Shown here in pieces: positions 12,899 through 40,831 of a stretch of DNA of 43,145 bases; position 1 is the first letter of the stretch, and each line of letters starts with the position of its first letter. Both the position numbers and the translations under genes were made by a program. The stretch comes from a virus (Duplodnaviria > Caudoviricetes): IMG/VR virus record IMGVR_UViG_3300032243_000398, positions 1 to 43,145 of that record, one strand, 5' to 3'. A model generated the notes under the pieces. That model was not told the DNA's origin and did not search any database. It was given only the letters and a program-made list of their open reading frames with translations.

Positions 12899-13885
12899 AT
12901 GAAACACAATTTTCAAAACATTCCTTTCAACGATATTGTAAGATTTGGACAAAGGACTATGCTGTCCAACCCGCTATTCTCAGTCAGTTGGATTTTGGGT
13001 AGGTTCTGTAATTACAATTGTAGTTACTGCTGGCCATATGCTAGAAGTGACAAGTTAGACCACCAACCATTAGAAGTCTACAAACGAACAGTAGATGAAA
13101 TCAAACGACAAGCTCGTGAAAATGGATTTACACAATTCCATTGGAGCTTTAGTGGCGGAGAGCCTACTGCTTACAAACACTTGCTAGATCTTACCAAGCA
13201 TCTCGACGATGGTCCGCAAACTCCGTACCAAACAATACACATGACTACTAACCTAAGTCCTGGAAGCAAGTGGTGGAAAAGTTGGTGTGACCATACTGCG
13301 CTACTTCAGCGTAGAAGTATCACTGCCAGCTACCACGATGAGTTCGCCAAAGAGCAGGAGTTTGGAGACAAGTGCCTACAGCTACAATACGAACTAGTAC
13401 ACGTTACTATCAATCAAGTTATGGTTCCTGAAAAATTTTATGAGCTGTATGAACGTATGGAACGCTTTCACAAACGTGGAATTAATGTTACGCTCAAGCC
13501 ACAGAGTAATCCTACAGCTAGCGGCATTGTTGATGGCTATACTGAAGACATGATTAACAAGATGCAAATAGGGTTTCCGCAACGTGCCAATGGTGAGGAC
13601 ACCTACCAAATTGCATTATATGATGCAGCTGGAAAGGAGTATTTGTTTGACCAAGCCGAGAGATTCAATGCGTTTGGGTTCAATAAATTTCAAGGTTGGG
13701 ATTGCAATGCCGGCTATCAAAGTGTTATAATTAGAGGTAATGAAGTCAAACGATCCTACAGTTGCCATGATCAAATATTGGGAACATTAACAGATGGGTT
13801 TGAACTTACAACTAAACCTAGGATATGCGTTACTCCTAGTTGTGTTAGTTCGGCTGATAGCAAAATACCAAAATGTATAAATTAG
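12899..13885 (+). CDS. Radical SAM protein with C-terminal SPASM/twitch-like Cys domain
   Basis: CNYNCSYC, SGGEPT and TTN motifs; C-terminal C.AG...C...C....C..SAD..IPK. Confidence 0.92.
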   Translation: MKHNFQNIPFNDIVRFGQRTMLSNPLFSVSWILGRFCNYNCSYCWPYARSDKLDHQPLEVYKRTVDEIKRQARENGFTQFHWSFSGGEPTAYKHLLDLTKHLDDGPQTPYQTIHMTTNLSPGSKWWKSWCDHTALLQRRSITASYHDEFAKEQEFGDKCLQLQYELVHVTINQVMVPEKFYELYERMERFHKRGINVTLKPQSNPTASGIVDGYTEDMINKMQIGFPQRANGEDTYQIALYDAAGKEYLFDQAERFNAFGFNKFQGWDCNAGYQSVIIRGNEVKRSYSCHDQILGTLTDGFELTTKPRICVTPSCVSSADSKIPKCIN

Positions 13886-14847
13886 AAGATATAAGAGATA
13901 TCCATTTAGAATTAACAAGCAAATGTCAAGCACGTTGCCCGATGTGTCCTCGCAGGGTAAGTGGAGGCATTTTAAATCCTTTAATAGCATTAAATGAAAT
14001 AACTCTACAGCAATTTAAAGAATGGTTTCCAATTGAAGTTATTCGGCAGCTTGACAGTCTGTTCATGTGTGGAAACCTAGGTGATCCTATTATTGCACAA
14101 GACTGTTTAGAAATATTTCAATACTTAAGAACTTCTAATCCTAACATGCGATTAAGTATGCATACCAACGGTAGTGCTAGAAATAAAACATGGTGGCAAG
14201 AATTAGCATATGCGAAAGTTCGAGTTACATTTGGTATTGATGGGTTAGTAGATACACACGCATTATATCGAATAGGTACGGACTTTGACAAAATTATCGA
14301 CAACGCCTGCGATTTTATTCAAGCAGGTGGCGAGGCCGAATGGCACATGCTGGTGTTTGAACATAACGAACATCAGATAGAAGCGTGTCGTGAGCACAGT
14401 AATGAAATAGGGTTTACTAAATTTACAATCAAACACACTAGTCGTTTTAAAGACGGCAAATTTAATGTACTTGACGATCAGGGCAAAACAGTTAATATCC
14501 TATACCCTACAGAACGTAGTAAGACACTAACTAGAAGTGTGCTTTCTGTCACCCCTTCAGAAATACAATGCAAGGCTCAGAAGTATAAACAAATTTATGT
14601 TGCGGCAGATGGGGCAATTAGTCCCTGCTGTTGGTTAGACTTTAGTTGGCAGTTGCCTAACCAAGACAATAGAATAGACTACATGGACACAATAGGAGTA
14701 TTTCCTAACCTTAATAGGAACTCAATGAAGGAAATATTCGACTCCGGGTACTTTAAACGAATCGAAGATGCGTGGGCAGTTAAACCGTTGATTGAATGTA
14801 GCAAACAATGTGGGAAGTTTGACAAGTTAGGATCTCAATTCGCATGA
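13873..14847 (+). CDS. Radical SAM protein with twitch domain
   Basis: CQARCPMC, GNLGDP, HTNGS, FGIDG, SPCC and C-terminal C...C motifs. Confidence 0.92.
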   Translation: MYKLEDIRDIHLELTSKCQARCPMCPRRVSGGILNPLIALNEITLQQFKEWFPIEVIRQLDSLFMCGNLGDPIIAQDCLEIFQYLRTSNPNMRLSMHTNGSARNKTWWQELAYAKVRVTFGIDGLVDTHALYRIGTDFDKIIDNACDFIQAGGEAEWHMLVFEHNEHQIEACREHSNEIGFTKFTIKHTSRFKDGKFNVLDDQGKTVNILYPTERSKTLTRSVLSVTPSEIQCKAQKYKQIYVAADGAISPCCWLDFSWQLPNQDNRIDYMDTIGVFPNLNRNSMKEIFDSGYFKRIEDAWAVKPLIECSKQCGKFDKLGSQFA

Positions 14848-15851
14848 ACATAATCGAAGTTAAACAAAATTGGCCCGATGGCTATATGCGAATCGACGTA
14901 GCACTGGGCAATATTTGTAATTACAAATGCTGGTACTGTTGGCCAGGCAGCAATGAAGGTACACATAAATGGCCAGACTTTGATCTATTAGTAAAAAACT
15001 TATCTCATGTATTAGATTACTACATTGAACATACAGATAAAAGAAAATTTGATTTTAATTTATTAGGCGGTGAAGTAACTCACTGGAAACGCTTTATAGA
15101 CTTTATTAAATATTTCAAAGAACGATACAATTGCATTTTTACATTGACTACAAACGGCAGTAAAAAACTATCATGGTGGGCAGATGCAGCACCATATTTA
15201 GATTACATTGGTATTAGCAGTCATCACGAATTTGCCGATCCTGTACACCTTAGAAACCTAGCAGATTTGTTATATAAGAAAAATGTTATTGTTGTTGTCA
15301 AGGTGTTAATGGATCCGTATGCTTGGGATAAATGTATGGATGCTGTAGAATATTACAAGGGCAGCGAAAAGCGTTGGTCTATTAGATATTTAGAAATCAT
15401 CGAAACTGAAAAAGTCAATTATACCGAAGAACAAAATAAAATTATCAGCAAGTTACGTGCTAGGGGACCAAACTTATTTTGGTTCTTTAAAAATAATAAA
15501 AGTTACAGAAGCAAAGTACAAGTAGTTGATGATAAAAATAAAACACATAAGATCAAAGATCACCTCATTGTGCTTGATAGGTTAAACAATTTTAAAGGTT
15601 GGGAATGTAATGTTGGTATAGATTGGATTGGTTTTAAAATTGACGGTAGCGTATCAGGAATATGCGGTAATCCACTATATGGACAATCGGAAATATTGAA
15701 TATCTTCGACCCAGACTTTACTAATAAATTTCATCCTGTAATTAAACCGAGCATCTGTGAAATGAATTCGTGCTGGTGTTTATTTGAAACCAACATGCCT
15801 AAAAGAAAATTAACTTCGTCTAACAAGGTAATTCCAATATATGCTCATTGA
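14844..15851 (+). CDS. Radical SAM protein with SPASM/twitch-like domain
   Basis: CNYKCWYC, GGEVT, TTNGS, GWECNVG and C....C.C motifs. Confidence 0.92.
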   Translation: MNIIEVKQNWPDGYMRIDVALGNICNYKCWYCWPGSNEGTHKWPDFDLLVKNLSHVLDYYIEHTDKRKFDFNLLGGEVTHWKRFIDFIKYFKERYNCIFTLTTNGSKKLSWWADAAPYLDYIGISSHHEFADPVHLRNLADLLYKKNVIVVVKVLMDPYAWDKCMDAVEYYKGSEKRWSIRYLEIIETEKVNYTEEQNKIISKLRARGPNLFWFFKNNKSYRSKVQVVDDKNKTHKIKDHLIVLDRLNNFKGWECNVGIDWIGFKIDGSVSGICGNPLYGQSEILNIFDPDFTNKFHPVIKPSICEMNSCWCLFETNMPKRKLTSSNKVIPIYAH

Positions 15852-16446
15852 TACAGAACATTTGCATCATTGGATGCAGGCCATACGACAGAGTCCGGAT
15901 CCAATGCGTACTATGGATGCCTTTTGGTCAGGCCAATTGAAAAGTAAAGAGTGGCTGATTAACGCACTGAGTACACAACTTTCGGGCAAGGATGGCCCAG
16001 CGAGTATCGAAATACACGGTGGGTGGGTTGGTGTACTAGCCAGTATGCTATTTCAAAGCATTATTCCTATCAAACGGATTACTAGCCTTGACATTGATCC
16101 CACATGTGAACCTATTGCCACAATGATGAACAAGGGCGAAGAAATTGCGGGAAGGTTTCAAGCTATAACCAGTGACATGTGCAATTTAATTTCATTCGTG
16201 GACATTGTTATTAACACCAGTTGTGAACATATCTCACAGGTACAATATTCTCAATGGTTGAATAATAGAAATGCAGATCAGCTATTGGTGCTACAAAGCA
16301 ACAACTATAAGATAGAAGAACACATTCGTACAGCAGATAGCCTGGAAGAATTTAAAACACAATGTGATATAGATGTATTGTGGGCAGGAGAACTAGAGCT
16401 ACCGTTATACACACGCTGGATGGTTATAGGAAAGAAACATGTTTGA
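15841..16446 (+). CDS. Class I SAM-dependent methyltransferase-like protein
   Basis: IHGGWVG (motif I-like), SLDID, TSDM and VINTSCEH motifs. Confidence 0.72.
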   Translation: MLIDTEHLHHWMQAIRQSPDPMRTMDAFWSGQLKSKEWLINALSTQLSGKDGPASIEIHGGWVGVLASMLFQSIIPIKRITSLDIDPTCEPIATMMNKGEEIAGRFQAITSDMCNLISFVDIVINTSCEHISQVQYSQWLNNRNADQLLVLQSNNYKIEEHIRTADSLEEFKTQCDIDVLWAGELELPLYTRWMVIGKKHV

Positions 16447-17530
16447 AATGAATGAACTTAAAATGGTTCACCTTGAAATTACAAATCGATGTCAGGCCTC
16501 TTGTCCTATGTGTCCTAGAAACATACACGGTGGTTTAGAAAATCCGTTATTGCCTATTAACGATTGGACATTAGATGACTTTGTAAAAATATTTTCAACT
16601 GACGTGCTAGAACAACTTGAGTTAATTAATTTCTGTGGGAACTTTGGCGATCCGTTACTGAATAATGATTTGCTTAAAATGTGTGAGTACATAAAACTTA
16701 ATGCTCCGACGGTAACTATTGATATTCATACTAACGGTAGTTTAAGATCTACAGACTGGTGGAAAGAGCTAGTTGAGGTATTGCCTAAAAATCATAATGT
16801 GATATTTGCTATAGATGGATTCGCTGATACACACAGTTTATATCGTGTTGGCACTAACTATGACATGATTATAAAGAATGCCAAAACATTTATTAACGTA
16901 GGCGGAACAGCCGAGTGGCATTTTATTAGGTTTAAACATAACGAACATCAAGTTAAAGACGCAGAACAGCTATCTATTGAGATGGGATTTAAAAAGTTTT
17001 CTGTAAAAACAAGTAGGCGACATGGCCGACCTTTTCCTGTAGTTGATAAACAAGGTGAATTTTTATACAATCTTGAACAGCCCACCGATAGCGAAATTAA
17101 GTTTGTAAGTAAATCAGATGTACAAGGACATCAACAGTGGAAAGATGCCGACAAGATTAACTGTCTTGCAATTAAGCATAAAGAATTGTACATTGATGCG
17201 CACTACCAATTAAGTCCTTGCTGTATGATTGGTGCGTTTTTATATACAAACTATGATGTAGACCTATTAAAAAAATATAATCTATATCAAGAAGATTCGA
17301 TCGTCGAAGAAGGCGAAAGAGTACGTCAGCAAGTATTAGAGTTTCCAAGATTAAATGTTTTAGAATCTGGATTAAAGAACATCATTGACTCCGAACAGTG
17401 GCAAACAATGTGGCAACAAAAATGGAAAGATAAATCTAGTTCAACGTGCATAATAATGTGCGGGCCACACAGTCCGTTTATAAGTATTGACGAGCAGAAA
17501 ACAACACTAATGAGCAAAATTGATGAATAA
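16439..17530 (+). CDS. Radical SAM protein with twitch domain (paralog of 13873)
   Basis: CQASCPMC, GNFGDP, HTNGS, FAIDG and SPCC motifs. Confidence 0.92.
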   Translation: MFEMNELKMVHLEITNRCQASCPMCPRNIHGGLENPLLPINDWTLDDFVKIFSTDVLEQLELINFCGNFGDPLLNNDLLKMCEYIKLNAPTVTIDIHTNGSLRSTDWWKELVEVLPKNHNVIFAIDGFADTHSLYRVGTNYDMIIKNAKTFINVGGTAEWHFIRFKHNEHQVKDAEQLSIEMGFKKFSVKTSRRHGRPFPVVDKQGEFLYNLEQPTDSEIKFVSKSDVQGHQQWKDADKINCLAIKHKELYIDAHYQLSPCCMIGAFLYTNYDVDLLKKYNLYQEDSIVEEGERVRQQVLEFPRLNVLESGLKNIIDSEQWQTMWQQKWKDKSSSTCIIMCGPHSPFISIDEQKTTLMSKIDE

Positions 17531-18941
17531 GGTTTTTTGGATGCAGCCTGCAGATACACAAATAGGCGATTGGCAAAAACAGATTACTGACTTAACAGGT
17601 AGTCCTAGTTTTTGTGTGTTGCCTTGGATACATCTAGCGACTCGACCAAACGGAGACATGCGTATTTGTTGTGTAGCTAATGCATCTGGTGCTGACACTG
17701 GAGACTATACTGTAGGGTTAGTTAAGATGGAGGATGGGGATCCAGCTAACTTTGCTCGAGATTTGCCTACAGAAGCATTTAATAATGACTATATGAAGTC
17801 AGTACGCAAGACTATGCTAGAAGGGAAGGTACCTGCCAGTTGTACCAAGTGCTTTAAGGAAGAGGAAGAGGGGATTGCTTCTAAACGCATTTGGGAAACA
17901 GGTTCTTGGCATCTACAAGAAAAAATAGATATTAAAGAATTGATTGCTGAAACAGAAGCAGATGGCACAGTTCCTTACAAATTGCAATACTTAGACCTTC
18001 GCTTAGGGCATACTTGCAATCTAAAATGTATTATGTGTAGTCCACACGATAGTTCGATGTGGGTCCCGGAACATAAAAAAGTATTTCCGATATTTCAAAG
18101 TCCATTAATTAAAAAACAAATGGATTGGAAGTCAGAATTGTTTAATAACAAATGGCACGAGAATCCTGCATTCTGGGAACAAGTCTATGACCAGATTCCT
18201 AATATCAAACAATTGTATTTTGCTGGCGGCGAACCCCTATTAATCAAAGAACACAAAATGTTCTTACAAGAAATTATTCGTAGAGGCTACGCTGATAAAA
18301 TTAGTCTACGCTACAATACAAATGGTATATTAGTCAATGATGAAATTATTGAAATATGGGAACAATTCAGAAAAGTTAAAGTCGGCATTAGTATTGACGG
18401 TACCGGTGAGCGTGTTCACTACATACGTTATCCTACTGATTGGGCCACTGTAGAAAAGAATCTATGGCGTCTAGAACAAACTAGTGACAAGATTCAGACC
18501 AACGTTGCATTTGCTGTACAAATTTTAAACATCAAACATGTCCCAGAATTTATTAAATGGAAAGTCAAGAGTGGGTTTAAGAAACTAAATTTTGATACTA
18601 ATGCCGCAGGCCAAGTTGCCGGCGGCGGCTTGGTCGGTGTACACCTGCTATGGATACCAACTTGGTTGAGTCTACGTGTGTTGCCTAAAGAAGATAAACT
18701 AGAGGTACGTGAGTTGTTTGCAGAACTACAAGATTGGTTGTGGAATAATTATACACAAGACGTAGAGTTCTGGGAAAAGAATCCATACGGATGGAAACGT
18801 TGGGAAGGAATCCTTGATTGGATGGATGCAGAAGATCATGTAAACTTACTGCCCGACTTTAAAGAATATATTACCACAATGGATGCACAACGTGGAACAG
18901 ATTTTAAATCGACGTTCCCTGAATTAGCACATTTAATATGA
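17523..18941 (+). CDS. Radical SAM protein with N-terminal twitch/SPASM-like domain
   Basis: N-terminal FCVLPW...ICC...CTKC, then CNLKCIMC, AGGEPL, NTNG and SIDG. Confidence 0.92.
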   Translation: MNKVFWMQPADTQIGDWQKQITDLTGSPSFCVLPWIHLATRPNGDMRICCVANASGADTGDYTVGLVKMEDGDPANFARDLPTEAFNNDYMKSVRKTMLEGKVPASCTKCFKEEEEGIASKRIWETGSWHLQEKIDIKELIAETEADGTVPYKLQYLDLRLGHTCNLKCIMCSPHDSSMWVPEHKKVFPIFQSPLIKKQMDWKSELFNNKWHENPAFWEQVYDQIPNIKQLYFAGGEPLLIKEHKMFLQEIIRRGYADKISLRYNTNGILVNDEIIEIWEQFRKVKVGISIDGTGERVHYIRYPTDWATVEKNLWRLEQTSDKIQTNVAFAVQILNIKHVPEFIKWKVKSGFKKLNFDTNAAGQVAGGGLVGVHLLWIPTWLSLRVLPKEDKLEVRELFAELQDWLWNNYTQDVEFWEKNPYGWKRWEGILDWMDAEDHVNLLPDFKEYITTMDAQRGTDFKSTFPELAHLI

Positions 18942-19975
18942 AACCGATTAAAATTGTATCAACGCAACAGTCTAACATCTTAGCAATACGATGGAATCCT
19001 AATAATGTTTGTAATTACAAATGTGAATATTGTTGGCCCGGTAGTAACACCGGAGACTATCGTTCTCCAGCAGATTTAGATCTTATAATTAAGAACTTCA
19101 ATCACATGATCGAACGTTACAGAACACAGTTAGGTAAAACTAAAATACATCTAAGCCTAGCAGGTGGTGAACCTACCCTATGGAAAGACCTTGCGCTGTT
19201 CATAGAAGCAATTAAAAAAGAGAACGATATCTATTTTAGCCTAATTAGTAACGGTTCAAGAACACTCAGATGGTGGAAGCAGTACGGACACTTAATAGAC
19301 AATGCTCATTTGTCGTATCACATATCACAAGCTGATCCAGATCATATGATCGCAGTAGCAGATACTCTTTTTGAACTTAATAAGAAAGTTACAGTAAAAG
19401 TTTTAATGGATAGGAAGCATTGGCAACAAGGGTTAGATGTTATTGAGTACATGAAAAAGAATAGCAAATACAAATGGATTCTTATGACCTGCGAAGTTAT
19501 TGAACCTGCTGTTTCAAATATTAGAGATATTCGAATTATTAATGCAGACGATATTCAATTGACAAAAGAACAAAAAGGGTTTTTGAAGAATCCGTTAAAG
19601 AGGATACCTAGTTTATTGTGGTTTTGGAAAAATAGAAAATTAATTTTTCAAGGACAAATAAGACTGTATGAAAGTATCGCTACTCTAGATAATGGAAAAA
19701 CTATAAAAGCCAAATCTAATACCTATATCAATAAGAACTGGACTAATTTTGAAGGGTGGAGTTGTGACATCGGGTTAGATAACGTTTTTATTAATTGGAC
19801 TGGGGAAGTACAAGGATCCTGTCAACAAAACATCTACGGACTGGATTACAATTTTAATATCTTAGATGAAAACTTTGTAGAAAAGTTTGATCCTGAATTT
19901 AAACCATCTATATGTTCTATTAAAAACTGCTTATGTTCTTGTGAAACACACCAATCAAAGTTTCAACTTAGTTAA
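18938..19975 (+). CDS. Radical SAM protein (paralog of 14844)
   Basis: CNYKCEYCWPGS, GGEPT, SNGSR, GWSCDIG and C....C.C motifs. Confidence 0.92.
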   Translation: MKPIKIVSTQQSNILAIRWNPNNVCNYKCEYCWPGSNTGDYRSPADLDLIIKNFNHMIERYRTQLGKTKIHLSLAGGEPTLWKDLALFIEAIKKENDIYFSLISNGSRTLRWWKQYGHLIDNAHLSYHISQADPDHMIAVADTLFELNKKVTVKVLMDRKHWQQGLDVIEYMKKNSKYKWILMTCEVIEPAVSNIRDIRIINADDIQLTKEQKGFLKNPLKRIPSLLWFWKNRKLIFQGQIRLYESIATLDNGKTIKAKSNTYINKNWTNFEGWSCDIGLDNVFINWTGEVQGSCQQNIYGLDYNFNILDENFVEKFDPEFKPSICSIKNCLCSCETHQSKFQLS

Positions 19976-20848
19976 CGGAATATCAGCAGCACAGGTACAC
20001 CAGTCTCTAGTACATATAATTGGTTCTGTAGGAACCGTAAAACTACCTGTATAGATATTACCTAAGCTACCGCCTACTCTGCATGTAGCGCGATGTACCT
20101 CACCATCCCAGTTAATCATTAAACTTTCGATACCTGCATTACAGGACCAGTCTTTAAATTGATTCTTATGAAGTTTGATAACATCATTGCTATGCATAAC
20201 TTCACGGTCGTCGATTCGACAGTTCGGTTTAACTGTAGCATCGTTATCCAGGATCCATTGTAAATCTTTCCCATCATATTTTAAATCATCAAATACATTA
20301 TGATCACCTTCGGTCCAACGTAATCTTCTAATAGCAAATTTAATACCTTTTTCTTTGAATTCTTTAACTACCTTACGAACACTATTCATGTGGGAGTGGT
20401 GCGCCATTACATTAACAAAGAAATCTCTTTCGGTACTATCATAGAATTCATTAATAACTTTTACGATACGTTCCCATTCATGTTCAAAATGTAAACTAAA
20501 CACCACATGATTAAAAAACATTTCATTGTTCAAATACCAACGCGATCCTCGTGTACCGTTCGTTGTTAGATTGACCCAGGAGATTCCTTTTCTTTTAAAA
20601 TACTCTAATAGATCTTCAATGTCTGGATGCACACATGGTTCGCCACCGGTTAAACTAATACGTAACGGCTTACCAATTTCGCATAATTTATCCACAGTAC
20701 GTTCTAATATATTGATGTCAGTATGCGGGCTAAAGTTATCGTGTATACTTGAAGGACAATACGTGCAATCGTAGTTACAACGCTTGCCAAGATTCCATTC
20801 TATTTTAATCTGATCTTGATGTGGCCACGCAGAAGTTACTTTATGCAT
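19955..20848 (-). CDS. Radical SAM protein with SPASM/twitch-like domain
   Basis: CNYDCTYC, TGGEP, TTNGTR, WSCNAG and CTRDWCTCAAD motifs. Confidence 0.92.
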   Translation of the reverse strand: MHKVTSAWPHQDQIKIEWNLGKRCNYDCTYCPSSIHDNFSPHTDINILERTVDKLCEIGKPLRISLTGGEPCVHPDIEDLLEYFKRKGISWVNLTTNGTRGSRWYLNNEMFFNHVVFSLHFEHEWERIVKVINEFYDSTERDFFVNVMAHHSHMNSVRKVVKEFKEKGIKFAIRRLRWTEGDHNVFDDLKYDGKDLQWILDNDATVKPNCRIDDREVMHSNDVIKLHKNQFKDWSCNAGIESLMINWDGEVHRATCRVGGSLGNIYTGSFTVPTEPIICTRDWCTCAADIPLTKLKL

Positions 20849-29683: not shown

Positions 29684-30211
29684 TTAATCGTTTAAGGTTA
29701 TTTGAAAAGTATATCTTGAATTGTATCCAATATTAAGAGGCCCATGCAGCGACATAGGGTCACTCCATTCAAACATGTCTCCAGCTTTATAGTTAGAAAT
29801 ATAATTTTCATCTAATACAAATATATGTCCAGGCTCCCAGTCTTGTAAAAATATTGTATATCTTACAAGATTCTTAACATCTAATGTATGCGCATCTACG
29901 TGCATGCATTGAAACTCTCCAGGACATAATTTTACAAACCACCAATTTATTTCTTTACGAGTTTTTGGAAGATTTGGTAAATTAAAATTAAAATTTTCCA
30001 TCTCAGGAGACCACGGTCCTAGCATATGAAAAAAAGCATTATCGTTGGAGTACCAAGGCTCGGCTTGTTTTCTAATTTTATCTAATACCGGGTGCCCGGT
30101 TAATTTTTCTACTGCCGATGTTAGAGAACTTGCCTCCCATTGGCAGGATAACAAATGTTCCATTATTTTTTGTTCTGCAATCCAAGAGGAATAGTTTCCA
30201 ACAAACTCCAT
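29684..30211 (-). CDS. Small cupin / 2OG-Fe(II) oxygenase-like protein (paralog of 27780)
   Basis: PGEFQCMHVD, RYTIFLQDWEPGH and HGPLNIG motifs; start moved to ATG 30211. Confidence 0.75.
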   Translation of the reverse strand: MEFVGNYSSWIAEQKIMEHLLSCQWEASSLTSAVEKLTGHPVLDKIRKQAEPWYSNDNAFFHMLGPWSPEMENFNFNLPNLPKTRKEINWWFVKLCPGEFQCMHVDAHTLDVKNLVRYTIFLQDWEPGHIFVLDENYISNYKAGDMFEWSDPMSLHGPLNIGYNSRYTFQITLND

Positions 30212-30212
30212 T

Positions 30213-32313: not shown

Positions 32314-32319
32314 GGCAAA

Positions 32320-32334
32320 TATTTATGATAATTA
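32320..32334. promoter_or_regulatory. Divergent putative late promoters
   Basis: TAAATA on the minus strand (32320-32325) 6 nt before ATG 32313; variant TAATTA on the plus strand (32329-32334) 4 nt before ATG 32339. Confidence 0.6.
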
Positions 32335-32338
32335 CTGT

Positions 32339-33031
32339 ATGGACAAAAAATTTAATTACTATTACAATAACGTACCAGATAGTGGTCCTTGCCGAAATAA
32401 TTTAATATACACCAGTCTTATGTCTGAAGACAATACGGTGTTTGTCCAATGGTATCATAATGATACAGAATATCACAAAGGTAAGAATCAAGTTGTGGAT
32501 CCTGCCAAAATGGAAGAAAAGTGGTTACGTGAAGTAAACTACTTAACACAGATGCGTAATGCGTACCCTGACTTAATTCCAAAAATTCTTAAAATTGATT
32601 TAGACGATAAAAAAATATATCTGGAAGTTAACGGGCCAGACTTCTGGGAACAAGCAGGTTGTCTAACTGAGAACTTCAACAAGGTCCTACCTGATTGGCA
32701 AGATCAAATGATTGAAATTATCAAAGCTCATAAAAATTTAGGCATACACAAATACAGTATGCACCCTAGTAGTTATTTTGTAGTTGATGGAAAATTAAAA
32801 AGTATCAATTATTTTTTTACCTATCGTGCAACGGAACCAAATATTAGCATTGCAGAAGTTGAAAGTCATATCTATACGACACGCCAAGATGAAATGCGCA
32901 AGCACCTAGAAAGGCTAGGTATCGAATGGGATACCCCACAGCCGTGGAAAGTTATGGACGAGTTATGCTGGGCTAGTTTTAGTAACAACTATCCTAAAGA
33001 ATTTATCGAGCGAGTAAGATGTATAAAATAA
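32339..33031 (+). CDS. Protein-kinase-like fold protein, degenerate (paralog of 25785)
   Basis: Shares YY.N...NL.YT, W.RE..YL, PKI..ID...KIYLE, P.W..QM and KYSMHPSSYFV..G.LKSINY with the 25785 protein. Confidence 0.55.
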   Translation: MDKKFNYYYNNVPDSGPCRNNLIYTSLMSEDNTVFVQWYHNDTEYHKGKNQVVDPAKMEEKWLREVNYLTQMRNAYPDLIPKILKIDLDDKKIYLEVNGPDFWEQAGCLTENFNKVLPDWQDQMIEIIKAHKNLGIHKYSMHPSSYFVVDGKLKSINYFFTYRATEPNISIAEVESHIYTTRQDEMRKHLERLGIEWDTPQPWKVMDELCWASFSNNYPKEFIERVRCIK

Positions 33032-33558
33032 TTCCTTGGTCACTAGAATTAGATTTAACAGATTTCTATAGATATTGTACAGCTAAGGGATTTGTCAATA
33101 ATGCTAGCCAGAAAGCCATGATAGATTGTTTTCGAAATGAACGTGAGTGGTGTGTATGGATATTGTTTTATAATGATGTTGCTGTGGGAAGTGTAGCAGC
33201 ACACAGCATAGATGAAGGATATCGCATCTGTGCTAGGACTTGTGTGTTGTCAGAGCTGTTGCCGCTAAACACACTGCGCACTCGCAATCAAATAGTTACA
33301 CATCAGCATGTAACAGCACAATACTTGATGCCGGCATGTATAGAGTGGGTGGGAAGTAAGGGCGACATGTACATTACCAGCCATCCTAGCGAAGTAGGAA
33401 CACAACGATTGGTGCATACTGTATGGGGACCTAGTTTAGAAAAGACAGGGGTTTTAACTAGAGCGTTTGAAAAAGACTATCGGGGACACTTACAAACGTT
33501 TTGGAAACTAAATGCAGAAGTGTTCCTTGATCAACTAAGAAACACTTCTAAAATTTAA
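33019..33558 (+). CDS. GNAT-like acyltransferase (tentative)
   Basis: 179 aa; WILFYND.AVGSVAAH and YRICARTCV strands followed by a helix, consistent with GNAT topology. Confidence 0.5.
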   Translation: MYKIIPWSLELDLTDFYRYCTAKGFVNNASQKAMIDCFRNEREWCVWILFYNDVAVGSVAAHSIDEGYRICARTCVLSELLPLNTLRTRNQIVTHQHVTAQYLMPACIEWVGSKGDMYITSHPSEVGTQRLVHTVWGPSLEKTGVLTRAFEKDYRGHLQTFWKLNAEVFLDQLRNTSKI

Positions 33559-35007
33559 TTAACGTATAGCTTCAATTCCGTTAGTAACAGCAAGTCTAAC
33601 CATTGCATTACTAAATTTCCAGCCATCGTAATAAAACATTTCTCTTGGACCGGTAACTTGACTACGTATATTATAATAATCGGGATCAATGTGTGGCAAC
33701 ATTTTTTTGTTTAGTTCCTCAAGATCAAGTTCTTCGTTTGTACGTATGTACCAACATTCGAGATCGCTATCAAACACAACATCAAAATCTTTTTCAGATA
33801 CTAGTCCGGTAACTTCTGCAACAACAGAATTTAAGAAATAATAGTAAACAGTTTTACCATTAATTCGACATAAGTCTGCTCGCCCAATAAACGTAAACAC
33901 ACCGTCCTCAACGTCGAATCTATCGCCTGTGTGGATTACATTACCTCTGTAATCAGTTATTTTTAGCAGCTTATCACCTTCTGTTGTAACTTCTTTATAA
34001 AACGGTGACGGAGTTCCATAGTTTCTAAGATTCCATTCTTTATAATTGTCTGGGCCTATCTCACAATAGAATACAGGACCACCAACTTCTTGGCTACCAA
34101 ATTGCGGAGTTATAATGTAACCAAAATCTCCACACATTCTACTAAGATATTTTTCTTTCATAGCGCCAATGTAGTGTATTTTCATTTGGTCGTGTTGTTT
34201 TTTACTAAGGTCCATGCCTTCTGAAAACCATTCCATTGCATCAAAGAAGACCGCGATTCGATTAATTTTTTCAGCCTGTACTGTGTCTATCATAGCTTTA
34301 TGTAATAACTCTTCTCGTTCGCCGCCGTCCCACCCAATTGGGGCATGAAAGTGAGACTTACATCTATTAGCTAACGGTAAAAAGTATACACCGAGAATTA
34401 CTCCGTGCTGTAAATTCTTATCATGCCAACACTTTTCGTTTTCTTTTAAATCATATAACACAGCATTGCTATTCATCATTCTAAAAAAGAATTCATGATT
34501 ATGTTCAATAAGTTTAGGAGTAGCAGTTGTTCCAGAACTAGTCGTAATCATGATGCTATCTTCGGGTTCGCACCATACAGGTGAAACAATTTCAGTTGGC
34601 TTATATGTGTCTAAAACATTACAATGCAGTTTTTTACTCGCATACTGCGGTTGATCGTATCCCGGTGGGTATACCATATCCCAAAGTACAATATCGGCTG
34701 TCTTGTAAAGGGGCATTTTCTCCATGGCTAATACTGTTTTTGGAAAATCAGAAATAATAAATTTCATTCCGAGCTCGGCACAAGCAAAAAGCCAGATCGG
34801 ATAGTTAGGCCAATACGTGATACACATCACTACGTGTTGTCCTTTTTTAGCATTAAATTCTTTTATCAAATAAGTTTTAGCAAGATCGATCTTTTCTTCA
34901 AGCTGTTGCCTAGTTACATGAATAGGGAAAATATTATCATTTTCGTCTCGGTTCAGTGCAGTTATTTCAAATTCGGGATGTAGTACGTTTCTAGTAATGA
35001 TATCCAT
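33559..35007 (-). CDS. Adenylate-forming (ANL / AMP-binding) enzyme
   Basis: TTSSGTTATPK P-loop, FGSQE, TGD and GRAD motifs; AGGAGG SD. Confidence 0.82.
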   Translation of the reverse strand: MDIITRNVLHPEFEITALNRDENDNIFPIHVTRQQLEEKIDLAKTYLIKEFNAKKGQHVVMCITYWPNYPIWLFACAELGMKFIISDFPKTVLAMEKMPLYKTADIVLWDMVYPPGYDQPQYASKKLHCNVLDTYKPTEIVSPVWCEPEDSIMITTSSGTTATPKLIEHNHEFFFRMMNSNAVLYDLKENEKCWHDKNLQHGVILGVYFLPLANRCKSHFHAPIGWDGGEREELLHKAMIDTVQAEKINRIAVFFDAMEWFSEGMDLSKKQHDQMKIHYIGAMKEKYLSRMCGDFGYIITPQFGSQEVGGPVFYCEIGPDNYKEWNLRNYGTPSPFYKEVTTEGDKLLKITDYRGNVIHTGDRFDVEDGVFTFIGRADLCRINGKTVYYYFLNSVVAEVTGLVSEKDFDVVFDSDLECWYIRTNEELDLEELNKKMLPHIDPDYYNIRSQVTGPREMFYYDGWKFSNAMVRLAVTNGIEAIR

Positions 35008-35100: not shown

Positions 35101-36540
35101 ATGAAGTTCCGAAGTGAAAAGCAACAATCGATTGTTTTTTGTATATTAGATATCACAGATAATTGCCAAAGTGGTGTTGCCAAAGATGTATGTGTTAATC
35201 TAAGTGATTTTATGATCAACAGGATTGATCAACACAAGTACGATATTTTGATCAGTAAAGATGAAGATGAATTATTAAACGTTGCAGCCGATGAAGGGTA
35301 TGCTCATGCAGTTCTTATTTCGGCAGGTACTAGTTTAGGATTATCTGATAGACTGTTTGATGCAGTTGAAGATCAATGCCAAGAAGATTTCTTTATAGCA
35401 GGACATATTTTAGATAGAGGTGATCATGCCTACTATAAAAAAAATGCCTGTTTTGAATTACATCAACAATTTTATGTTATTAATCTTGAACAGTATAAAG
35501 AATTAGGTCGTCCCTTTGTGGGCAACGAAGAATGGGTAGAGTACCAACAGATTGCTCCGCTTCGTAGCGAAGAATGTTTACATGGCGATCCAGAAATTCC
35601 TGCATGGATGAAAAAAGGAACTGAACTTAAAACTTATTCTGTTAAATTGCATGGTTGGAATATATTAAATGTTGGGTTAGAACACGACAAACATCTAATA
35701 CCGTTGAGCCGTAGAATTCGAGATAGTAAAAAATATTTGTATTACGAACACGATCATGTATTTTTAAAACAGTTAGCAGATATACGACAACTTCAATTCT
35801 TTGGAATGAACTTTTTTGCTGGTTGGAACTCTGATCAATTAAGGGCAGACTTACCATTTGATGGACCAGTTGAACAATACGCTACTGTTGGCATTGGATT
35901 TAATTGGATTAAAAATTTAGAAATTGTAGGTTTTGCAGAAAATACCAAAGTAATTTTTACAGACATTAACTATAACTGTTTAATGTTTATGAAAAAAATG
36001 GTTGAAGAATGGGATGGAAAAGATTACGATGAATTCTATTGGAGGAACAAACCAATGCTGCCTAACAATCCTCCGTATATTCCAGAAACCTATAAAGATC
36101 AAATACGTGAACAATGGCAGAAATTCTTAACAACAATGGATAACTGGGATGCTCATTGGGGAAAAATTAAGAATTTAAACTATGAGTATATTCTCATAGA
36201 CTACACAGCATCATTTAATTTTGATTGGCTCGAAGCAGGCAAGAAAACTTTGTTAAATTTAAGTGACTTGTACAATCATGGACCATTTGTTGCTTCGTCG
36301 AGTTTAAAATATCGCATTAGTTGTGAAAACGGTTTGTTACAAAAACTTAAAAATAAAGATTCAAACATAACAACTATTTTATCCTCAAGAGCCGCAGATG
36401 GGTTTTGGAAAAATAAAATTGATCAGAAATTAGATAAGGTTAGTAATTTTATCTATACTGATATTAAAGATCTAAAAACACCAGCCTGGCATGCAGCGGA
36501 CTGGCAACATAATAGCGAACGCCCCTTAGGAGTTAATTGA
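35101..36540 (+). CDS. Hypothetical two-domain protein (479 aa)
   Basis: Long ORF; N-terminal half with IAGHILDR...ELHQQFYVINL (GT-A-like, tentative); C-terminal half Rossmann-like. Confidence 0.75.
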   Translation: MKFRSEKQQSIVFCILDITDNCQSGVAKDVCVNLSDFMINRIDQHKYDILISKDEDELLNVAADEGYAHAVLISAGTSLGLSDRLFDAVEDQCQEDFFIAGHILDRGDHAYYKKNACFELHQQFYVINLEQYKELGRPFVGNEEWVEYQQIAPLRSEECLHGDPEIPAWMKKGTELKTYSVKLHGWNILNVGLEHDKHLIPLSRRIRDSKKYLYYEHDHVFLKQLADIRQLQFFGMNFFAGWNSDQLRADLPFDGPVEQYATVGIGFNWIKNLEIVGFAENTKVIFTDINYNCLMFMKKMVEEWDGKDYDEFYWRNKPMLPNNPPYIPETYKDQIREQWQKFLTTMDNWDAHWGKIKNLNYEYILIDYTASFNFDWLEAGKKTLLNLSDLYNHGPFVASSSLKYRISCENGLLQKLKNKDSNITTILSSRAADGFWKNKIDQKLDKVSNFIYTDIKDLKTPAWHAADWQHNSERPLGVN

Positions 36541-37184
36541 TGAAAGAATATTATCATTCAGAGGGTCGTTATCTAAAACTAGATATCGCATTGCCATATA
36601 AAGAAATGTGTGCAGAAGCATTTGCTTTGATTGATAAGTTTAGCTCACACAGAGGTGATGAAGATTCGCACGGTTGGGAAAGTTTAACCATACATGGGCT
36701 TGGATGGGACAAACACGAGAACTATGATGCCTACGGTTATAAGAAAGGCAAAGATGCTAGCAACGACATGATATGGACTGAGATTGCAGATCAATGTCCA
36801 ATAACAACTAAGTGGCTTAAAGACGTTTTTCCTTGTAACAAATATGGTCGTGTTAGATTTATGTTATTACGTGCAGGCGGAAAAATTGCCTTACACAGTG
36901 ATAGTAGTATAAAATTAATAGAGAATATAAATGTTGCTCTTAATAACCCTGTAGGTTGTAAATGGGTTTGGGGAGACGGCGAAGAAATAATTATGGAACC
37001 AGGCGGAGTGTATGCAATGAATTTACATTATCATCATTCGGTAATAAATGAAAGTAATGAAGATCGTATGCATATGATTATTGCTAGACACGATGCTACC
37101 AGCGGTTGGAAGCAATTAATAGAAGATGCAGCTTCCAAACAAGGAATTACTGGCGAATATAAAGTAATCGACGAATTACCTTAA
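36540..37184 (+). CDS. Aspartyl/asparaginyl beta-hydroxylase-like oxygenase
   Basis: CP.T..WL, RVRFMLL..GG.I..HSD and HSVIN.S.EDRMH motifs. Confidence 0.82.
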   Translation: MKEYYHSEGRYLKLDIALPYKEMCAEAFALIDKFSSHRGDEDSHGWESLTIHGLGWDKHENYDAYGYKKGKDASNDMIWTEIADQCPITTKWLKDVFPCNKYGRVRFMLLRAGGKIALHSDSSIKLIENINVALNNPVGCKWVWGDGEEIIMEPGGVYAMNLHYHHSVINESNEDRMHMIIARHDATSGWKQLIEDAASKQGITGEYKVIDELP

Positions 37185-38047
37185 ACTGTATAATCCTGAT
37201 CCGGAAAATCAAAAGCCATACGGTGCAATACTCGTTTTTCTATTGCCTCAAATGGCCACCTCTTGTGAATACCTAACCATTGCTCGGCTATAACGATGTC
37301 CCCGTCGTCCCAATCGTGATGATAACAGTATTTGTCTTGTATGGTATGCTCTGTTAACCAACTAATAATGTCTTTGCTTTCGTCTTCTGATAAACCTACA
37401 AATCCAGAAATTTGCAAGAACGGAAAATAAAACCCTTTTTTACCTGCTATGTTTTGCATGACTAAATTAGGAGTATACCCATCGAGTGCCTCTCCAGTAT
37501 ACCCTGCCAATACATCAGCATCATTTTCAGCCCAGTTGGCCATGACAAGTTTAAGATTTTCTAAGGGTTCTCTTTTTTGTTTGTCTAATTCGTCATAGGA
37601 CAAAATGTTATTATTCCACGTGGTTCTTGATCCTTTAGAACCTCTTACGGAATACAAATAAATCAATGAACGTTTTAAAGGGTCGTGTGGATCGTTGCAG
37701 TGCCACACCATTTCATCAGTCCACCCTGCAATTCCAGGCAAGCCGTGTTCATTTTTTTCGCCAGTAACACGTAGAATATATTTTTCTGATCCGTCTACTT
37801 CTGCTCCACGATAGCATTCAGCATCGAACGACCCTTCTACATCCACATGAAACTGTTGCGGATTCTTAAACATTTTAGCAATTCTAACTTCGTCTTCAAT
37901 AGTTAACGATTGATTTTTAATTACTACAAGAGTATGCGTTGCTAATAATTTTGCTATGTAATTTATATCATCTTGTGTAGCAGTATTGATGTTAAAATTT
38001 TCAAGTATAACAGTCCAACCGTTTTTGTGTAATTTATATTGTATCAT
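37181..38047 (-). CDS. TauD/TfdA family dioxygenase (HxN variant)
   Basis: WHCN, GS.T.W, Y.H.W..GD.VI and H.R......R.LHR motifs. Confidence 0.85.
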   Translation of the reverse strand: MIQYKLHKNGWTVILENFNINTATQDDINYIAKLLATHTLVVIKNQSLTIEDEVRIAKMFKNPQQFHVDVEGSFDAECYRGAEVDGSEKYILRVTGEKNEHGLPGIAGWTDEMVWHCNDPHDPLKRSLIYLYSVRGSKGSRTTWNNNILSYDELDKQKREPLENLKLVMANWAENDADVLAGYTGEALDGYTPNLVMQNIAGKKGFYFPFLQISGFVGLSEDESKDIISWLTEHTIQDKYCYHHDWDDGDIVIAEQWLGIHKRWPFEAIEKRVLHRMAFDFPDQDYTV

Positions 38048-38763
38048 TTGATAACCTCATTATAATCTACTCCTGCTCTATGCAGTACTCTAATGTCCAT
38101 TCTAGCAAATGGCCAGCGTTTGTGTATGCTGTTCCATTGATCAGATATAACTACATCGCCGTCCTCCCAATCATGATGATACATGTATTTTTCGTTTAAA
38201 ACGTGATTACAGAGTGTTAGTTTAAGTTTGTCAGATTCTTGTTGTGTAAGCTCTACAAACTTCCCTAATTGGTAGGGAGAAAAATACATACCTGGTTGAC
38301 CTGCAAGAGTTGTATGAACTAGCGGAGGATTCCATGCGGTATTATATTTTACTCCAACATGATCGGGTGCGCTTGGTGCAGATATATTTCCGTAAATAGA
38401 ATGTAAATTTGCAATTTGCTTTTTGATATCATCGGTTAAGTCAGCGTATGCAATTATATTATTATTCCAGGTAGTTCTAGAACCAGCGGTTCCTCTATGC
38501 CCATACAGGTAAAGAATTTCACTACGATCTGGTTCTTCCGGAGTATCACTATGCCAGTCAAATCCTTCCTCCCAATCAGCCATACCAATTTTTCCATCGC
38601 GGATTTCTTTCGTAACTCTGAAAATTATACCGTCTGGGTCTTTTTTAAGATCTAATGCAAAATCATCAAATAGCGGATCGTCTTTAGGATACAACGATTT
38701 TGGGTTGTTAAACATATTTAAAAATCTTAATTCGTCTTCAATAGTTAACGATTGATTTTTAAT
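37889..38763. repeat. Exact 33-bp direct repeat shared by the two TauD paralogs
   Basis: TTCGTCTTCAATAGTTAACGATTGATTTTTAAT at 37889-37921 and 38731-38763 (encodes IKNQSLTIEDE on the minus strand). Confidence 0.9.
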
Positions 38764-38886
38764 AACAACACAAGTATTAGCAGAAAGTAATTTTTCAAGA
38801 TCGTTGACTTCTTGCTGTGTGCAAGTTTTTAAATCAACTTTTGCAAACACAGTCCATCTGTTTTCATGTACTACATAATCTATCAT
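38044..38886 (-). CDS. TauD/TfdA family dioxygenase
   Basis: WHSD, PLVH, YHHDWEDGDVVI and H.R......RVLHR motifs. Confidence 0.88.
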   Translation of the reverse strand: MIDYVVHENRWTVFAKVDLKTCTQQEVNDLEKLLSANTCVVIKNQSLTIEDELRFLNMFNNPKSLYPKDDPLFDDFALDLKKDPDGIIFRVTKEIRDGKIGMADWEEGFDWHSDTPEEPDRSEILYLYGHRGTAGSRTTWNNNIIAYADLTDDIKKQIANLHSIYGNISAPSAPDHVGVKYNTAWNPPLVHTTLAGQPGMYFSPYQLGKFVELTQQESDKLKLTLCNHVLNEKYMYHHDWEDGDVVISDQWNSIHKRWPFARMDIRVLHRAGVDYNEVIK

Positions 38887-39608
38887 ATAGGCATTCCTAC
38901 TTTTTGTTTAAATTCTTTTGAAAATCTACCATTTATCCTTAATGTATATGTTGGACGTTGAATAGGTATTCCACCGTGCCAGTCACTTTCATTCCAATAT
39001 GCAACTCTAGTATTCATAAAGGTGCGTTCGCCTGTATCCGGATTGAGAATATAAAACGGTCTATCGCAATCAGTTTTTATATGAATAAACTCCGGAAGGT
39101 ATCCGAGGGTTTCGTCCGGTTGTCTAGGATCATAATGTTCCCAGGGAATACCACCTGCATCTACAGATATCAAATTTGAACTATACAGGCTGTCTAATAT
39201 TCCAGAGGTTACGAAACTTTGAATCCATTTTAACAGACCGGGAAAATGATCAGCGACTTCACTTACAACATTATGCTCTCCGAGAATAGGAAACAGTCGA
39301 TAGAAATCATAGGCACCAAATGCGCTTTTTAAATAATCAGTAAGTTGATTATAGCTTAAATCTTTCCCGGCTATTTTCATTGGATCGCTATCCGGTAAAG
39401 AATTCCACATTGAAACTATTTCGTATAACGGCTTAACTGGTATGCCTTGTGCATGCGGGTGGATAGTGCCTTCTGGAATTTCGTGAATGCCGTCAATAGC
39501 AAGATCTCTAGCAGTAGCTATTCCTCTACAAATTTCTGGGCGTAAAGCATCGAACTCACTTAAGTCTACATGTTTTTCTAAATCTATATATGGGAGTCCG
39601 TGTATCAT
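38883..39608 (-). CDS. Putative Fe(II) oxygenase (paralog of 28866)
   Basis: GIPWEHYD, EFIHI and WN.SDWHGG......YTLRINGRF motifs. Confidence 0.65.
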   Translation of the reverse strand: MIHGLPYIDLEKHVDLSEFDALRPEICRGIATARDLAIDGIHEIPEGTIHPHAQGIPVKPLYEIVSMWNSLPDSDPMKIAGKDLSYNQLTDYLKSAFGAYDFYRLFPILGEHNVVSEVADHFPGLLKWIQSFVTSGILDSLYSSNLISVDAGGIPWEHYDPRQPDETLGYLPEFIHIKTDCDRPFYILNPDTGERTFMNTRVAYWNESDWHGGIPIQRPTYTLRINGRFSKEFKQKVGMPI

Positions 39609-39610
39609 TT

Positions 39611-39916
39611 TTAAATTTCTGTTACAGATCTATTAGCGGTTATATTGTGCCACAGATTGTATCTAGTTTGTAAAACATTTTGATATTGTAACACGTCGTC
39701 ATTTAGAAATGCATCATAATCTTCTTGAGATTTAAAAATTAATGTTTTAGTCTGTGTGGTATAATCTTCACTAGTAATGCTAGACATACTGATAAGTTTA
39801 TTAGTATCTTGAAAATGTTTCTTGATATATTCTGCAATGCCAAGATCACTATTAAAAAATTGATCAATAATATTTTTGTCTAGTTGTCTTACACTAACTA
39901 TTTCTAATTTTATCAT
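39611..39916 (-). CDS. Hypothetical protein
   Basis: 101-aa ORF coupled within the operon. Confidence 0.72.
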   Translation of the reverse strand: MIKLEIVSVRQLDKNIIDQFFNSDLGIAEYIKKHFQDTNKLISMSSITSEDYTTQTKTLIFKSQEDYDAFLNDDVLQYQNVLQTRYNLWHNITANRSVTEI

Positions 39917-40512
39917 GTATAATCCTTAATAAAATCAACTTTAATTTTCGGAAATGATTCAAAAATTTTAGCTCTAGTCCAATCCCAATTATGCGGACTA
40001 TCAAGTTTTAGTTTATTGCCAATACAGATAGCTGTTTTTAAAATAAATTCATCTTCGTGTTTTGATGCTACAAACTCATCATAATTGATATGCAGGTATT
40101 CTTGTACTTCTCGTAGACGAGGATCATGGCAATCTAAGCTATTTTGAAAGCCTAATGCATATCCTCTTTTTAACACAGCCATTCCTATCTTGGAATAAAA
40201 TCTTCCAAGATTAATTAAAGATTTTCCGTCAGTTGTATCAATAGGCGGAAGAATAATTATCAATGGCGCCCACAGAGAAGGGAGTTTAACATCGCCATTA
40301 AATTCTCCGTCTCTGCACCAGTGACCGATATAGAAAAGTTTTTTAATAATTTCTTTGTCTTGAATTACGCTTTTTTTAGCAATTGGATTCTCAACTAAAA
40401 AATCATCTATCATTTTAGTTAGATATTCAACAGTTTCTGCGTCTACTGGTGTATCGATATTAAATGATCGATTGGCATGCGATAGCATATGATTCAATGT
40501 GAGATTATACAT
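39913..40512 (-). CDS. Nitroreductase-like protein (divergent)
   Basis: RSF....PV..E, APLII, G......A...GY..GF and terminal ICIG pattern. Confidence 0.55.
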   Translation of the reverse strand: MYNLTLNHMLSHANRSFNIDTPVDAETVEYLTKMIDDFLVENPIAKKSVIQDKEIIKKLFYIGHWCRDGEFNGDVKLPSLWAPLIIILPPIDTTDGKSLINLGRFYSKIGMAVLKRGYALGFQNSLDCHDPRLREVQEYLHINYDEFVASKHEDEFILKTAICIGNKLKLDSPHNWDWTRAKIFESFPKIKVDFIKDYT

Positions 40513-40831
40513 TTACCAGCACCTCAAAATATTCTGGAGACTTAGCTTCGTCTATAGTATATGGAATATTGTTAACTTGAAAGAACCCTTCTAATGCTCC
40601 GATAGCTAGGCCAGTATGATGGTGGCTTTCGTAAAAGGTAAAAGAATCTTGAAGTCTTGTTTCGTCATCTGCTCTATCGTCTAGATCGAAATACTTAGTT
40701 GTTGGTATAAATTTTATTTTAAGAGTATCGTTAACTTTTGTTATGATACATTCAAAGTATATCCGGCCACACCGCGCGGGCGCACAGTTAATTACATTTT
40801 TAATTGATTCTAGTAGATTTGGGTATTTCAT
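40505..40831 (-). CDS. Hypothetical protein
   Basis: 108-aa ORF, first gene after TAAATA at 40837-40842. Confidence 0.7.
   Translation of the reverse strand: MKYPNLLESIKNVINCAPARCGRIYFECIITKVNDTLKIKFIPTTKYFDLDDRADDETRLQDSFTFYESHHHTGLAIGALEGFFQVNNIPYTIDEAKSPEYFEVLVNV

Follow-up and report, generated by a model that had tools for sequence, protein, structure and literature searches.

A modular radical SAM and oxygenase island of T4-like jumbo phages, with sugar tailoring as its proposed chemistry

Gene content of the island

The virus record IMGVR_UViG_3300032243_000398 (43,145 nt, analysed over its whole length and referred to here as the window) contains an island of ~28 kb (12899–40831) rich in predicted radical S-adenosylmethionine (SAM) enzymes and Fe(II) oxygenases. 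An earlier, sequence-only reading counted 31 consecutive, tightly packed open reading frames (ORFs) here; the packing is as described, but there are 33 ORFs, overlapping or almost abutting (largest gap 93 nt), in eight alternating strand blocks of 7, 4, 4, 7, 2, 1, 2 and 6 genes, and the island is therefore not one operon. Its G+C content is 36.2%, with 40.5% and 41.0% in the flanks. Comparison with homologues of 70–99% identity gave ratios of nonsynonymous to synonymous change (pN/pS; pS near saturation, uncorrected) of 0.04–0.27 for 30 of the 33 genes, which are under purifying selection; the island genes are intact, and SGNH2, the gene resembling outer-membrane proteins (OMP) and a 101-amino acid (aa) gene had no homologue pair in this range. 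Pfam and NCBIfam library scans matched no capsid, replication, non-ribosomal peptide synthetase (NRPS) or polyketide synthase (PKS) family inside the block, in agreement with that reading. Condensation, ketosynthase and carrier domains were likewise unmatched, leaving a single lone ANL enzyme, unlike an NRPS/PKS cluster, and the scans gave no match to families of scaffold synthases, exporters or resistance proteins. Almost all products are predicted to be soluble, one alone having a hydrophobic N-terminus.

Eleven proteins (rS1–rS11) carry the CxxxCxxC motif and all exceed the PF04055 cut-off, bearing out the number of radical SAM enzymes first proposed. They fall into five groups: rS1, rS3, rS6 and rS7; rS2 and rS4; rS5 and rS8; rS10 and rS11; and the B12-type rS9. 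The first strand block (+) opens with rS1 (12899–13885), which has C-terminal twitch-type cysteines and TAAATA just upstream, and which is the island's first gene at both genomic sites described below. It continues with rS2 (13873–14847; radical SAM plus PF13186, 36% identical to its paralogue rS4 and with a 43% match in a cellular chromosome), rS3 (14844–15851; paralogue of rS6, 37%), a predicted class I methyltransferase (15841–16446), rS4 (16439–17530; twitch-type cysteines), rS5 (17520–18941) and rS6 (18938–19975). rS7 (19955–20848, −) and rS8 (20841–22133, −) follow on the opposite strand. rS9 (24256–25800, +), of B12-binding type, lies further right, and rS10 (30213–31280, −), a zinc-ribbon (PF23545) protein that is Tes/TrsS-like below cut-off, stands in tandem with its paralogue rS11 (31273–32313, −; 56%).

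Auxiliary cysteines number 4–6 in eight of the 11 radical SAMs, corresponding to one twitch cluster. SPASM maturases have two auxiliary clusters with 7–8 cysteines; no SPASM domain of that kind was found among the island enzymes, which also score far below the cut-offs of peptide-maturase models. No precursor peptide gene was found, in a search that covered ORFs of at least 50 aa in the sister loci, and two ~100-aa island ORFs move separately from the core. With a single twitch cluster and no precursor peptide found, the initial lean towards peptides, or ribosomally synthesized and post-translationally modified peptides (RiPPs), is not upheld. rS5 and rS8 pass the NCBIfam model NF033640 with 398 and 328 bits (cut-off 170) and have invariant N-terminal twitch cysteines; their N-terminal domain aligns with the twitch domain of BtrN (4m7s, residues 166–241; E 3e-4). 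BtrN and NeoN take part in aminoglycoside synthesis, acting on aminoglycoside sugars (PMC10991966).

All nine proposed Fe(II) oxygenases hold up: Pfam supports four, and the other five are assigned through profile alignment or paralogy and conserve the iron ligands. TauD1 (37181–38047, −; first iron site H-C-N), TauD2 (38044–38886, −) and AspH2 (36537–37184, +) exceed the Pfam cut-off, and AspH1 (23594–24259, +), an AspH-like Fe(II)/2-oxoglutarate (2OG) oxygenase, falls under it. For the small AspH-like oxygenases cup1 (26470–26976, +), cup2 (27780–28304, −) and cup4 (29684–30292, −) the alignment is with the profile of AspH1 (E 1e-6 to 3e-5), for the larger HxD..H oxygenase ox3 (28866–29669, −) with AspH2 (E 2e-4), and ox5 (38883–39608, −) joins the set solely through 36% identity to its paralogue ox3. 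An iron-ligand pattern HxD/E..H..R/K is present in 38–40 of 40 homologues each of AspH1, cup1, cup2 and ox3.

The remaining labels fared unevenly. The ANL adenylating enzyme (33559–35007, −) stands; SGNH1 (22087–22710, −) is weakly GDSL/SGNH-like (E 4e-4, under cut-off), and SGNH2 (26942–27787, −), with a 42% match in a cellular genome, is assigned through SGNH1 (E 7e-22). The methyltransferase has an Atlas neighbour in favour of its label but no Pfam or PDB match. The predicted pyridoxal-phosphate (PLP)-dependent enzyme (22703–23581, −; likely start 23581) resembles threonine aldolase at an E of just 0.5, with invariant H-D and S-K-G residues. PDB sequence searches gave no useful match for the methyltransferase, the single PLP protein, ox3 or the DxD family described below, and the GNAT, nitroreductase and methyltransferase candidates did not align to single reference proteins. 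Kin1 (25785–26492, +) and Kin2 (32306–33031, +) have a protein-kinase fold (E 2e-7), but the catalytic-loop Asp position holds S, T, A, Q or C in 31 sequences, unlike an active protein kinase, and both may bind rather than phosphorylate. Library support was not significant for the OMP, GNAT and nitroreductase labels: the first belongs to the hydrophobic-N-terminus protein (28304–28855, −), a possible outer-membrane barrel and sporadic passenger (KdgM E 8e-4, under cut-off), the second to a conserved gene with no library match (33019–33558, +), and the third to the 199-aa member of a three-gene block (101, 199 and 108 aa; 39611–40831, −) that lies outside the island in L268.

Conserved core, exchangeable modules and two genomic sites

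Searching with rS5 yielded 79 IMG/VR loci, drawn without dereplication from the 80 best of 101 matches and extending no more than 10 kb to each side of that gene. Thirty-one of these loci span 19 kb or more; with genes labelled by their best BLAST hit, distant paralogues included, rS1, the methyltransferase, rS7, rS8 and AspH1 are always present in the 31, the PLP enzyme is found in 27 and rS4 in 26, and ANL and OMP are found in none. Gene order is shuffled and inverted among loci, with rS7 and rS8 at most one gene apart in 55/56. The right half keeps the same order in eight loci fetched with U479 (see below), six of which extend to the fibre gene (38–56% identity) and five of these to the phosphoesterase. 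The OMP-like gene, ANL and the three-gene block are freely mobile among loci. Synteny in relatives, named beforehand as a test, thus revealed conserved co-occurrence and not scattered homologues, and because gene order and content recur in relatives the feature exceeds chance. The island is real, selected and modular, with a fixed core and exchangeable modules. Of the 'dedicated pathway' initially proposed, the core remains; a single pathway is too simple a description, given the exchangeable modules and the unrelated cargo found at the same site elsewhere.

The left border, just outside the island, is a tRNA-like RNA (12725–12835, −) that ends in CCA after an A discriminator and has a long variable arm; a hairpin of variable length replaces the anticodon arm, and a sigma-70-like promoter precedes the RNA. 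Its acceptor and T stems are 100% paired in 23 sequences, with 13 pairs changed on both sides; ARAGORN reported nothing, Rfam gave no match at gathering score (20.8 bits vs 29) and the free fold was no better than shuffles (z −0.76). A 62-aa histone H1-like Hc1 protein is encoded nearby (12491–12679, −; E 6e-14). On the right, the border is a fibre-like protein with an Mtd_N-type N-terminus (40908–42155, −), followed by a metallophosphoesterase (42255–42863, −), the first backbone gene on that side. A pattern search with the fibre gene found no IMG/VR loci.

Used as an independent anchor, the tRNA-like RNA gave at least 120 IMG/VR matches, of which 80 were examined. Of the 78 with 1.5 kb or more of upstream sequence, 61 begin with rS1, one has it further on and in 16 it is absent. 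Some rS1-less sites lead nearly directly to the fibre or phosphoesterase (L090, L107, L110, L121, L159), others carry unrelated cargo (such as HemE/HemC, DctP, TctC, desaturase, PurD and APS kinase), and in G007 (94% complete, two radical SAMs) the site still closes with fibre and phosphoesterase. The island is therefore dispensable and the fibre a border marker; the functional tie to this gene that had been suggested is not supported, the fibre remaining when the radical SAM core is absent. The RNA is also retained where the core is absent.

Several further arrangements were seen at this site. The smallest island (L093) has six genes (rS1, rS5, rS3-like, methyltransferase, rS4-like and rS7-like) between RNA and fibre, and a 400-kb phage carries HemE and HemC instead (L082, 7095–9208). 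To the right of the site, in the window at the phosphoesterase (42255–42863) and in L090, L107, L121 and L127 upstream of the RNA, are genes that resemble an RNA-repair set: phosphoesterase, AAA_33 kinase, RNA ligase, dual-specificity phosphatase and DUF2828/DUF7788. This set adjoins the tRNA-like RNA where the island is absent.

Among 65 rS5 loci with rS1, 33 lie by the RNA, 17 behind a conserved DxD-protein operon and 15 at contig edges or elsewhere. At the second of these sites rS1 is at most three genes behind the DxD protein of a glycosyltransferase (GT)-like operon, one family of which matches glycogenin (GT8, E 1.6e-5). The operon comes after tail-fibre genes in G004 and G008, where further radical SAMs with an N-terminal twitch (N-twitch) follow, and after RecA in G006. 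Accessory genes of sister islands encode sugar epimerases, UDP-glucose dehydrogenase, sulfotransferase, APS kinase, carbamoyltransferase and GT8, and one sister island has amidinotransferase-like genes. Elsewhere in sister islands a cold-shock domain is fused to glutathione peroxidase or a 2OG oxygenase (L129, 9680–10414; L161, 6374–7207).

Late-type promoter motifs and phage origin

The motif TAAATA, which we take to match the T4 late promoter consensus, was counted when at most 30 nt from an in-frame ATG, with identical proteins counted once and kinship uncorrected. It precedes 177/221 unit heads, 24/715 inner genes and 10/234 flank genes; in the window it is this close at five of eight heads, and ANL has one 79 nt upstream. 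It also lies ahead of the baseplate and fibre genes of the related genome G004. Unlike this contig, G004 includes a gene for a late sigma factor. Scans for sigma-70 promoters and terminators over 11000–30000 stayed at chance level. A late-type promoter motif thus appears to head the units and, with the late sigma factor, is consistent with T4-type late transcription, so that the late expression claimed by the sequence-only reading gains support as a prediction.

One protein encoded in the left arm has matches in Pseudomonas phage PA5oct and Sinorhizobium phage phiM12, and Gp23 is encoded in all five long related records (199–400 kb), which have 19, 11, 8, 2 and 8 PF04055 proteins. G004 encodes portal, baseplate and late sigma genes. 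The island belongs to T4-like jumbo phages, and on the phage matches and Gp23 the contig is of phage origin, as first supposed. rS5 matches only 4/50,697 cultured or deposited phage records, all at <30% identity and none from a Campylobacter phage. The cultured Vibrio phages K566 and K567 encode distant N-twitch paralogues; in K566 four N-twitch-like genes stand together within 11 kb (L081, 13455–24423). The left arm of the window (1–6166, −) holds host-type genes: that for IscU is truncated where the contig ends, and the others encode superoxide dismutase, UvsE, a GT8-like protein, KdsA and QueD.

Cellular counterparts

Two Pseudobdellovibrionaceae assemblies have N-twitch and rS7-like genes (41–45%) beside GT2 and prepilin-like genes, and NF033640 is over cut-off in 20/81 genomes of one Pseudobdellovibrionaceae family sample and in 0/14 controls. 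A 20-kb low-G+C cluster amid housekeeping genes of G050 (single contig, 2.66 Mb) encodes a nucleotidyltransferase, an APH-like kinase, SGNH and GT2 alongside proteins resembling rS2, rS4 and rS5; in G009 three N-twitch genes are followed by GT2. The scan of cellular regions covered 78 of 123 listed proteins and found no match to the methyltransferase, PLP enzyme or oxygenases, so the radical SAM part alone is in common. Cellular rS7-like proteins seem to hold the twitch segment N-terminally, a second permutation (L204, 2256–3293 and 4296–5879). A Crocinitomicaceae assembly (G003) also includes contigs of phage type (L202, 84% identity, 2.6 kb); these are probably misbinned and were discarded as evidence of a host or cellular copy.

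U479, a predicted transferase

U479 (35101–36540, +), a 479-aa protein with 375 homologues, was not among the labels of the sequence-only reading. Its structure model (74 sequences, pLDDT 93.8) predicts a GT-A/nucleotidyltransferase fold (residues ~9–228) joined to a class I methyltransferase fold (~229–458; NNMT/PNMT-like). The GT-A half best matches the Paramecium bursaria chlorella virus 1 (PBCV-1) capsid glycosyltransferase 2p6w (Z 11.2, root-mean-square deviation 3.8, 164 aligned), followed by A197 of Sulfolobus turreted icosahedral virus (STIV; Z 11.0), both viral. Profile comparison links U479 to neither the DxD family nor the island methyltransferase. U479 lies ahead of AspH2 in 8/8 loci fetched. 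As no more than a lead, a U479-like protein and AspH are fused in a 688-aa Atlas cluster (score 0.84). The Foldseek list is headed by LH3, at a template-modelling (TM) score of 0.2. A 707-aa homologue (P0054) is fused to a QueC-like domain.

Proposed function and alternatives

The evidence favours sugars over peptides: a single twitch cluster, no precursor peptide, a GT-like operon, the cellular pairing with GT2 and nucleotidyltransferase, and the U479 fold. Sugar tailoring is probably the chemistry, virion and host-envelope targets taken together, and is the best supported. The late promoters and the second site make the virion the likelier target. Our preferred reading, to which we give slightly less than an even chance, is that the twitch radical SAMs, oxygenases and transferases rework activated sugars that are attached to the virion late in infection. 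Of the outcomes first listed (decoration of virion, glycans or host surface, or a small molecule), glycan decoration is thus the best supported, on sequence and model grounds.

Under this proposal the phage late sigma factor would transcribe the eight short units, and phage IscU of the left arm could help to supply iron-sulfur clusters. The core (rS1, methyltransferase, rS2/rS4, rS5, rS7–rS8, PLP enzyme and AspH1) would act on a nucleotide-sugar or a cyclitol by oxidation, epimerisation, deoxygenation or methylation, in the manner of BtrN and NeoN, and optional modules would put on hydroxyl, acyl or methyl groups, so that the product would differ among phages. Loading it onto structural proteins might then fall to U479 together with the GT8-like/GT2-like operon that follows tail-fibre genes, giving a variable coat that could guard against recognition by host or neighbour.

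Several observations weigh against this. Viperin, MoaA, SkfB and Tes match the catalytic domains as well as or better than BtrN, and the catalytic-domain likeness to viperin, MoaA, SkfB, BlsE and Tes is generic and points to no substrate. The nine oxygenases, PLP enzyme, TauD pair and ANL ligase would equally suit amino-acid or acyl chemistry. In U479, matches to glycosyltransferases and nucleotidyltransferases are tied within Z 1, DxD is absent (by eye the equivalent strand ends A/S-x-G-T in the 74-sequence consensus), and, as a shared fold alone shows no function, it is a predicted transferase only; it is also non-core, present in 5/31 long loci, many of which end before its position. The DxD family adjoining rS1 has an invariant DxD with weak GT2 support (best E 0.0013; PDB none), the block is without a nucleotide-sugar epimerase or dehydrogenase, the GT operon is not on this contig, and the bordering fibre persists without the core. 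The cellular clusters of G036, G074 and G081 showed no sugar family nearby in the scan. Product, substrate, transcript and virion modification are all things that we infer from the observed gene content, selection, order, sites, motif and neighbours.

The same sugar chemistry might instead place its product on the host envelope (lipopolysaccharide, capsule or pilin), blocking other phages or grazers. LpxO is an AspH-family lipid A hydroxylase, KdsA and the GT8-like gene lie in the left arm, and the cellular cluster of G002 has as neighbours GT2, a prepilin-like gene and genes for two large membrane proteins; the same idea was proposed for pelagimyophage islands (PMC7029224). Late-type promoters, however, would allow little time for this, and the island has one hydrophobic N-terminus and no membrane transferase or flippase, so we consider an envelope target unlikely.

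Somewhat less likely again, and about equally so, are two further readings. Synthesis of a diffusible small molecule, derived from a nucleoside, a cyclitol or an amino acid and directed against host defences or competitors, would fit the weak viperin, BlsE and BtrN likeness and the PLP enzyme, TauD pair and ANL ligase typical of natural-product clusters, but the missing scaffold synthase, exporter and resistance families argue against it, as does content that differs widely among close phages, ANL and TauD being sporadic. Direct modification of proteins, RiPP-like or on the virion (hydroxylation, epimerisation, residue methylation, possibly then glycosylation as in LH3), would account for the AspH-like and kinase folds and for U479 adjoining AspH2, with the Atlas fusion cluster and the LH3 match as slight additional pointers. 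Against it stand the lack of a precursor peptide or room for one, of a 7–8-cysteine SPASM domain and of maturase scores near cut-off, together with kinases lacking the catalytic Asp.

A recombination hotspot that gathers independent late-expressed metabolic cassettes, with no single pathway, is improbable for the whole. Haem synthesis, solute-binding, desaturase or PurD genes at the same site in other phages and the mobile OMP, ANL and three-gene block speak for it; five core genes in every long locus, rS1 first at two separate sites and the rS7–rS8 pairing speak against. It holds for the periphery of the island, not its core. Least probable of all is hypermodification of phage DNA or tRNA bases, for which QueD in the window, a QueE-like gene in G004, QueC-like PP-loop genes in many sister islands and the flanking tRNA-like RNA and RNA-repair genes might be cited, but PF01702 matched in 0/5 relatives (a model that may miss divergent DpdA), ThyX is present, no base-modification Pfam family matched in the block and the RNA persists without the core.

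Significance and comparison with known systems

Multi-radical-SAM phage regions have been noted since 2010 and their function never assigned. We found no description of this island or characterised equivalent in the open literature, subscription papers and supplements aside, and within that range the statement that no characterised phage system has this content stands. A broader and more tentative possibility is that a widespread group of jumbo phages runs a combinatorial glycan factory, a radical SAM core in common with Bdellovibrio-type predators combined with swappable oxygenase, acyl and methyl modules, whose novel sugars coat the virion. If so, each phage would have a chemically distinct surface, with sugars new to chemistry, and a new reaction could be expected of each of as many as eight twitch radical SAMs, which belong to four unstudied families; virion glycosylation of this kind would make phage surfaces chemically much more varied than thought. 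The defined core, natural presence/absence and module variants, predicted internal transferase and bacterial chromosomal counterparts make the island testable enzyme by enzyme, and whichever reading holds it is a dense source of unstudied radical SAM and oxygenase chemistry.

NF033640 covers rS5 and rS8, over cut-off and with an N-terminal twitch matching BtrN, but is a protein family without known reaction and accounts for 2/33 island genes. BtrN and NeoN have in common with the island enzymes a single auxiliary cluster and the twitch sequence match, whereas here the twitch is N-terminal in rS5 and rS8, one block has eight twitch enzymes and aminoglycoside scaffold genes are absent (PMC10991966).

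With the PBCV-1 capsid glycosyltransferase (PDB 2p6w) U479 shares the GT-A fold, to which it adds a methyltransferase fold. As in virus-encoded virion glycosylation, the GT-like operon sits behind virion genes; unlike in those systems, U479 is without DxD and glycosylation is a prediction from genes alone. We know of no radical SAM or oxygenase array in the virion glycosylation systems of PBCV-1 or mycobacteriophages. Mycobacteriophage capsid and tail-tube glycans are cited in PMC12619734, which concerns another lineage and, in the part available, does not mention radical SAMs; in PMC12801897 a single radical SAM neighbours sugar genes.

Campylobacter phages CP220 and CPt10 encode 11 and 12 radical SAMs, with an interchangeable, uncharacterised five-enzyme module judged non-essential (PMC2853527). 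Many radical SAMs and an exchangeable module are common to both systems, as are amidinotransferase-like genes, present here in a sister island, but the oxygenase array has no counterpart in the available part of that account. The pelagimyophage host recognition cluster, a hypervariable island with fibres, glycosyltransferases and radical SAM cassettes, resembles the second site (PMC7029224). Host-recognition-type content here comprises a variable island, one bordering fibre and one predicted GT-A fold, with a clear GT-like operon at the second site only. That cluster is set between VrlC and gp14 (PMC7029224), whereas the present island lies amid metabolic and RNA-repair genes, in G004 more than 100 kb from the baseplate genes (island 230–264 kb, baseplate ~111–114 kb), and differs from the host recognition cluster in being enzyme-only with a fixed core.

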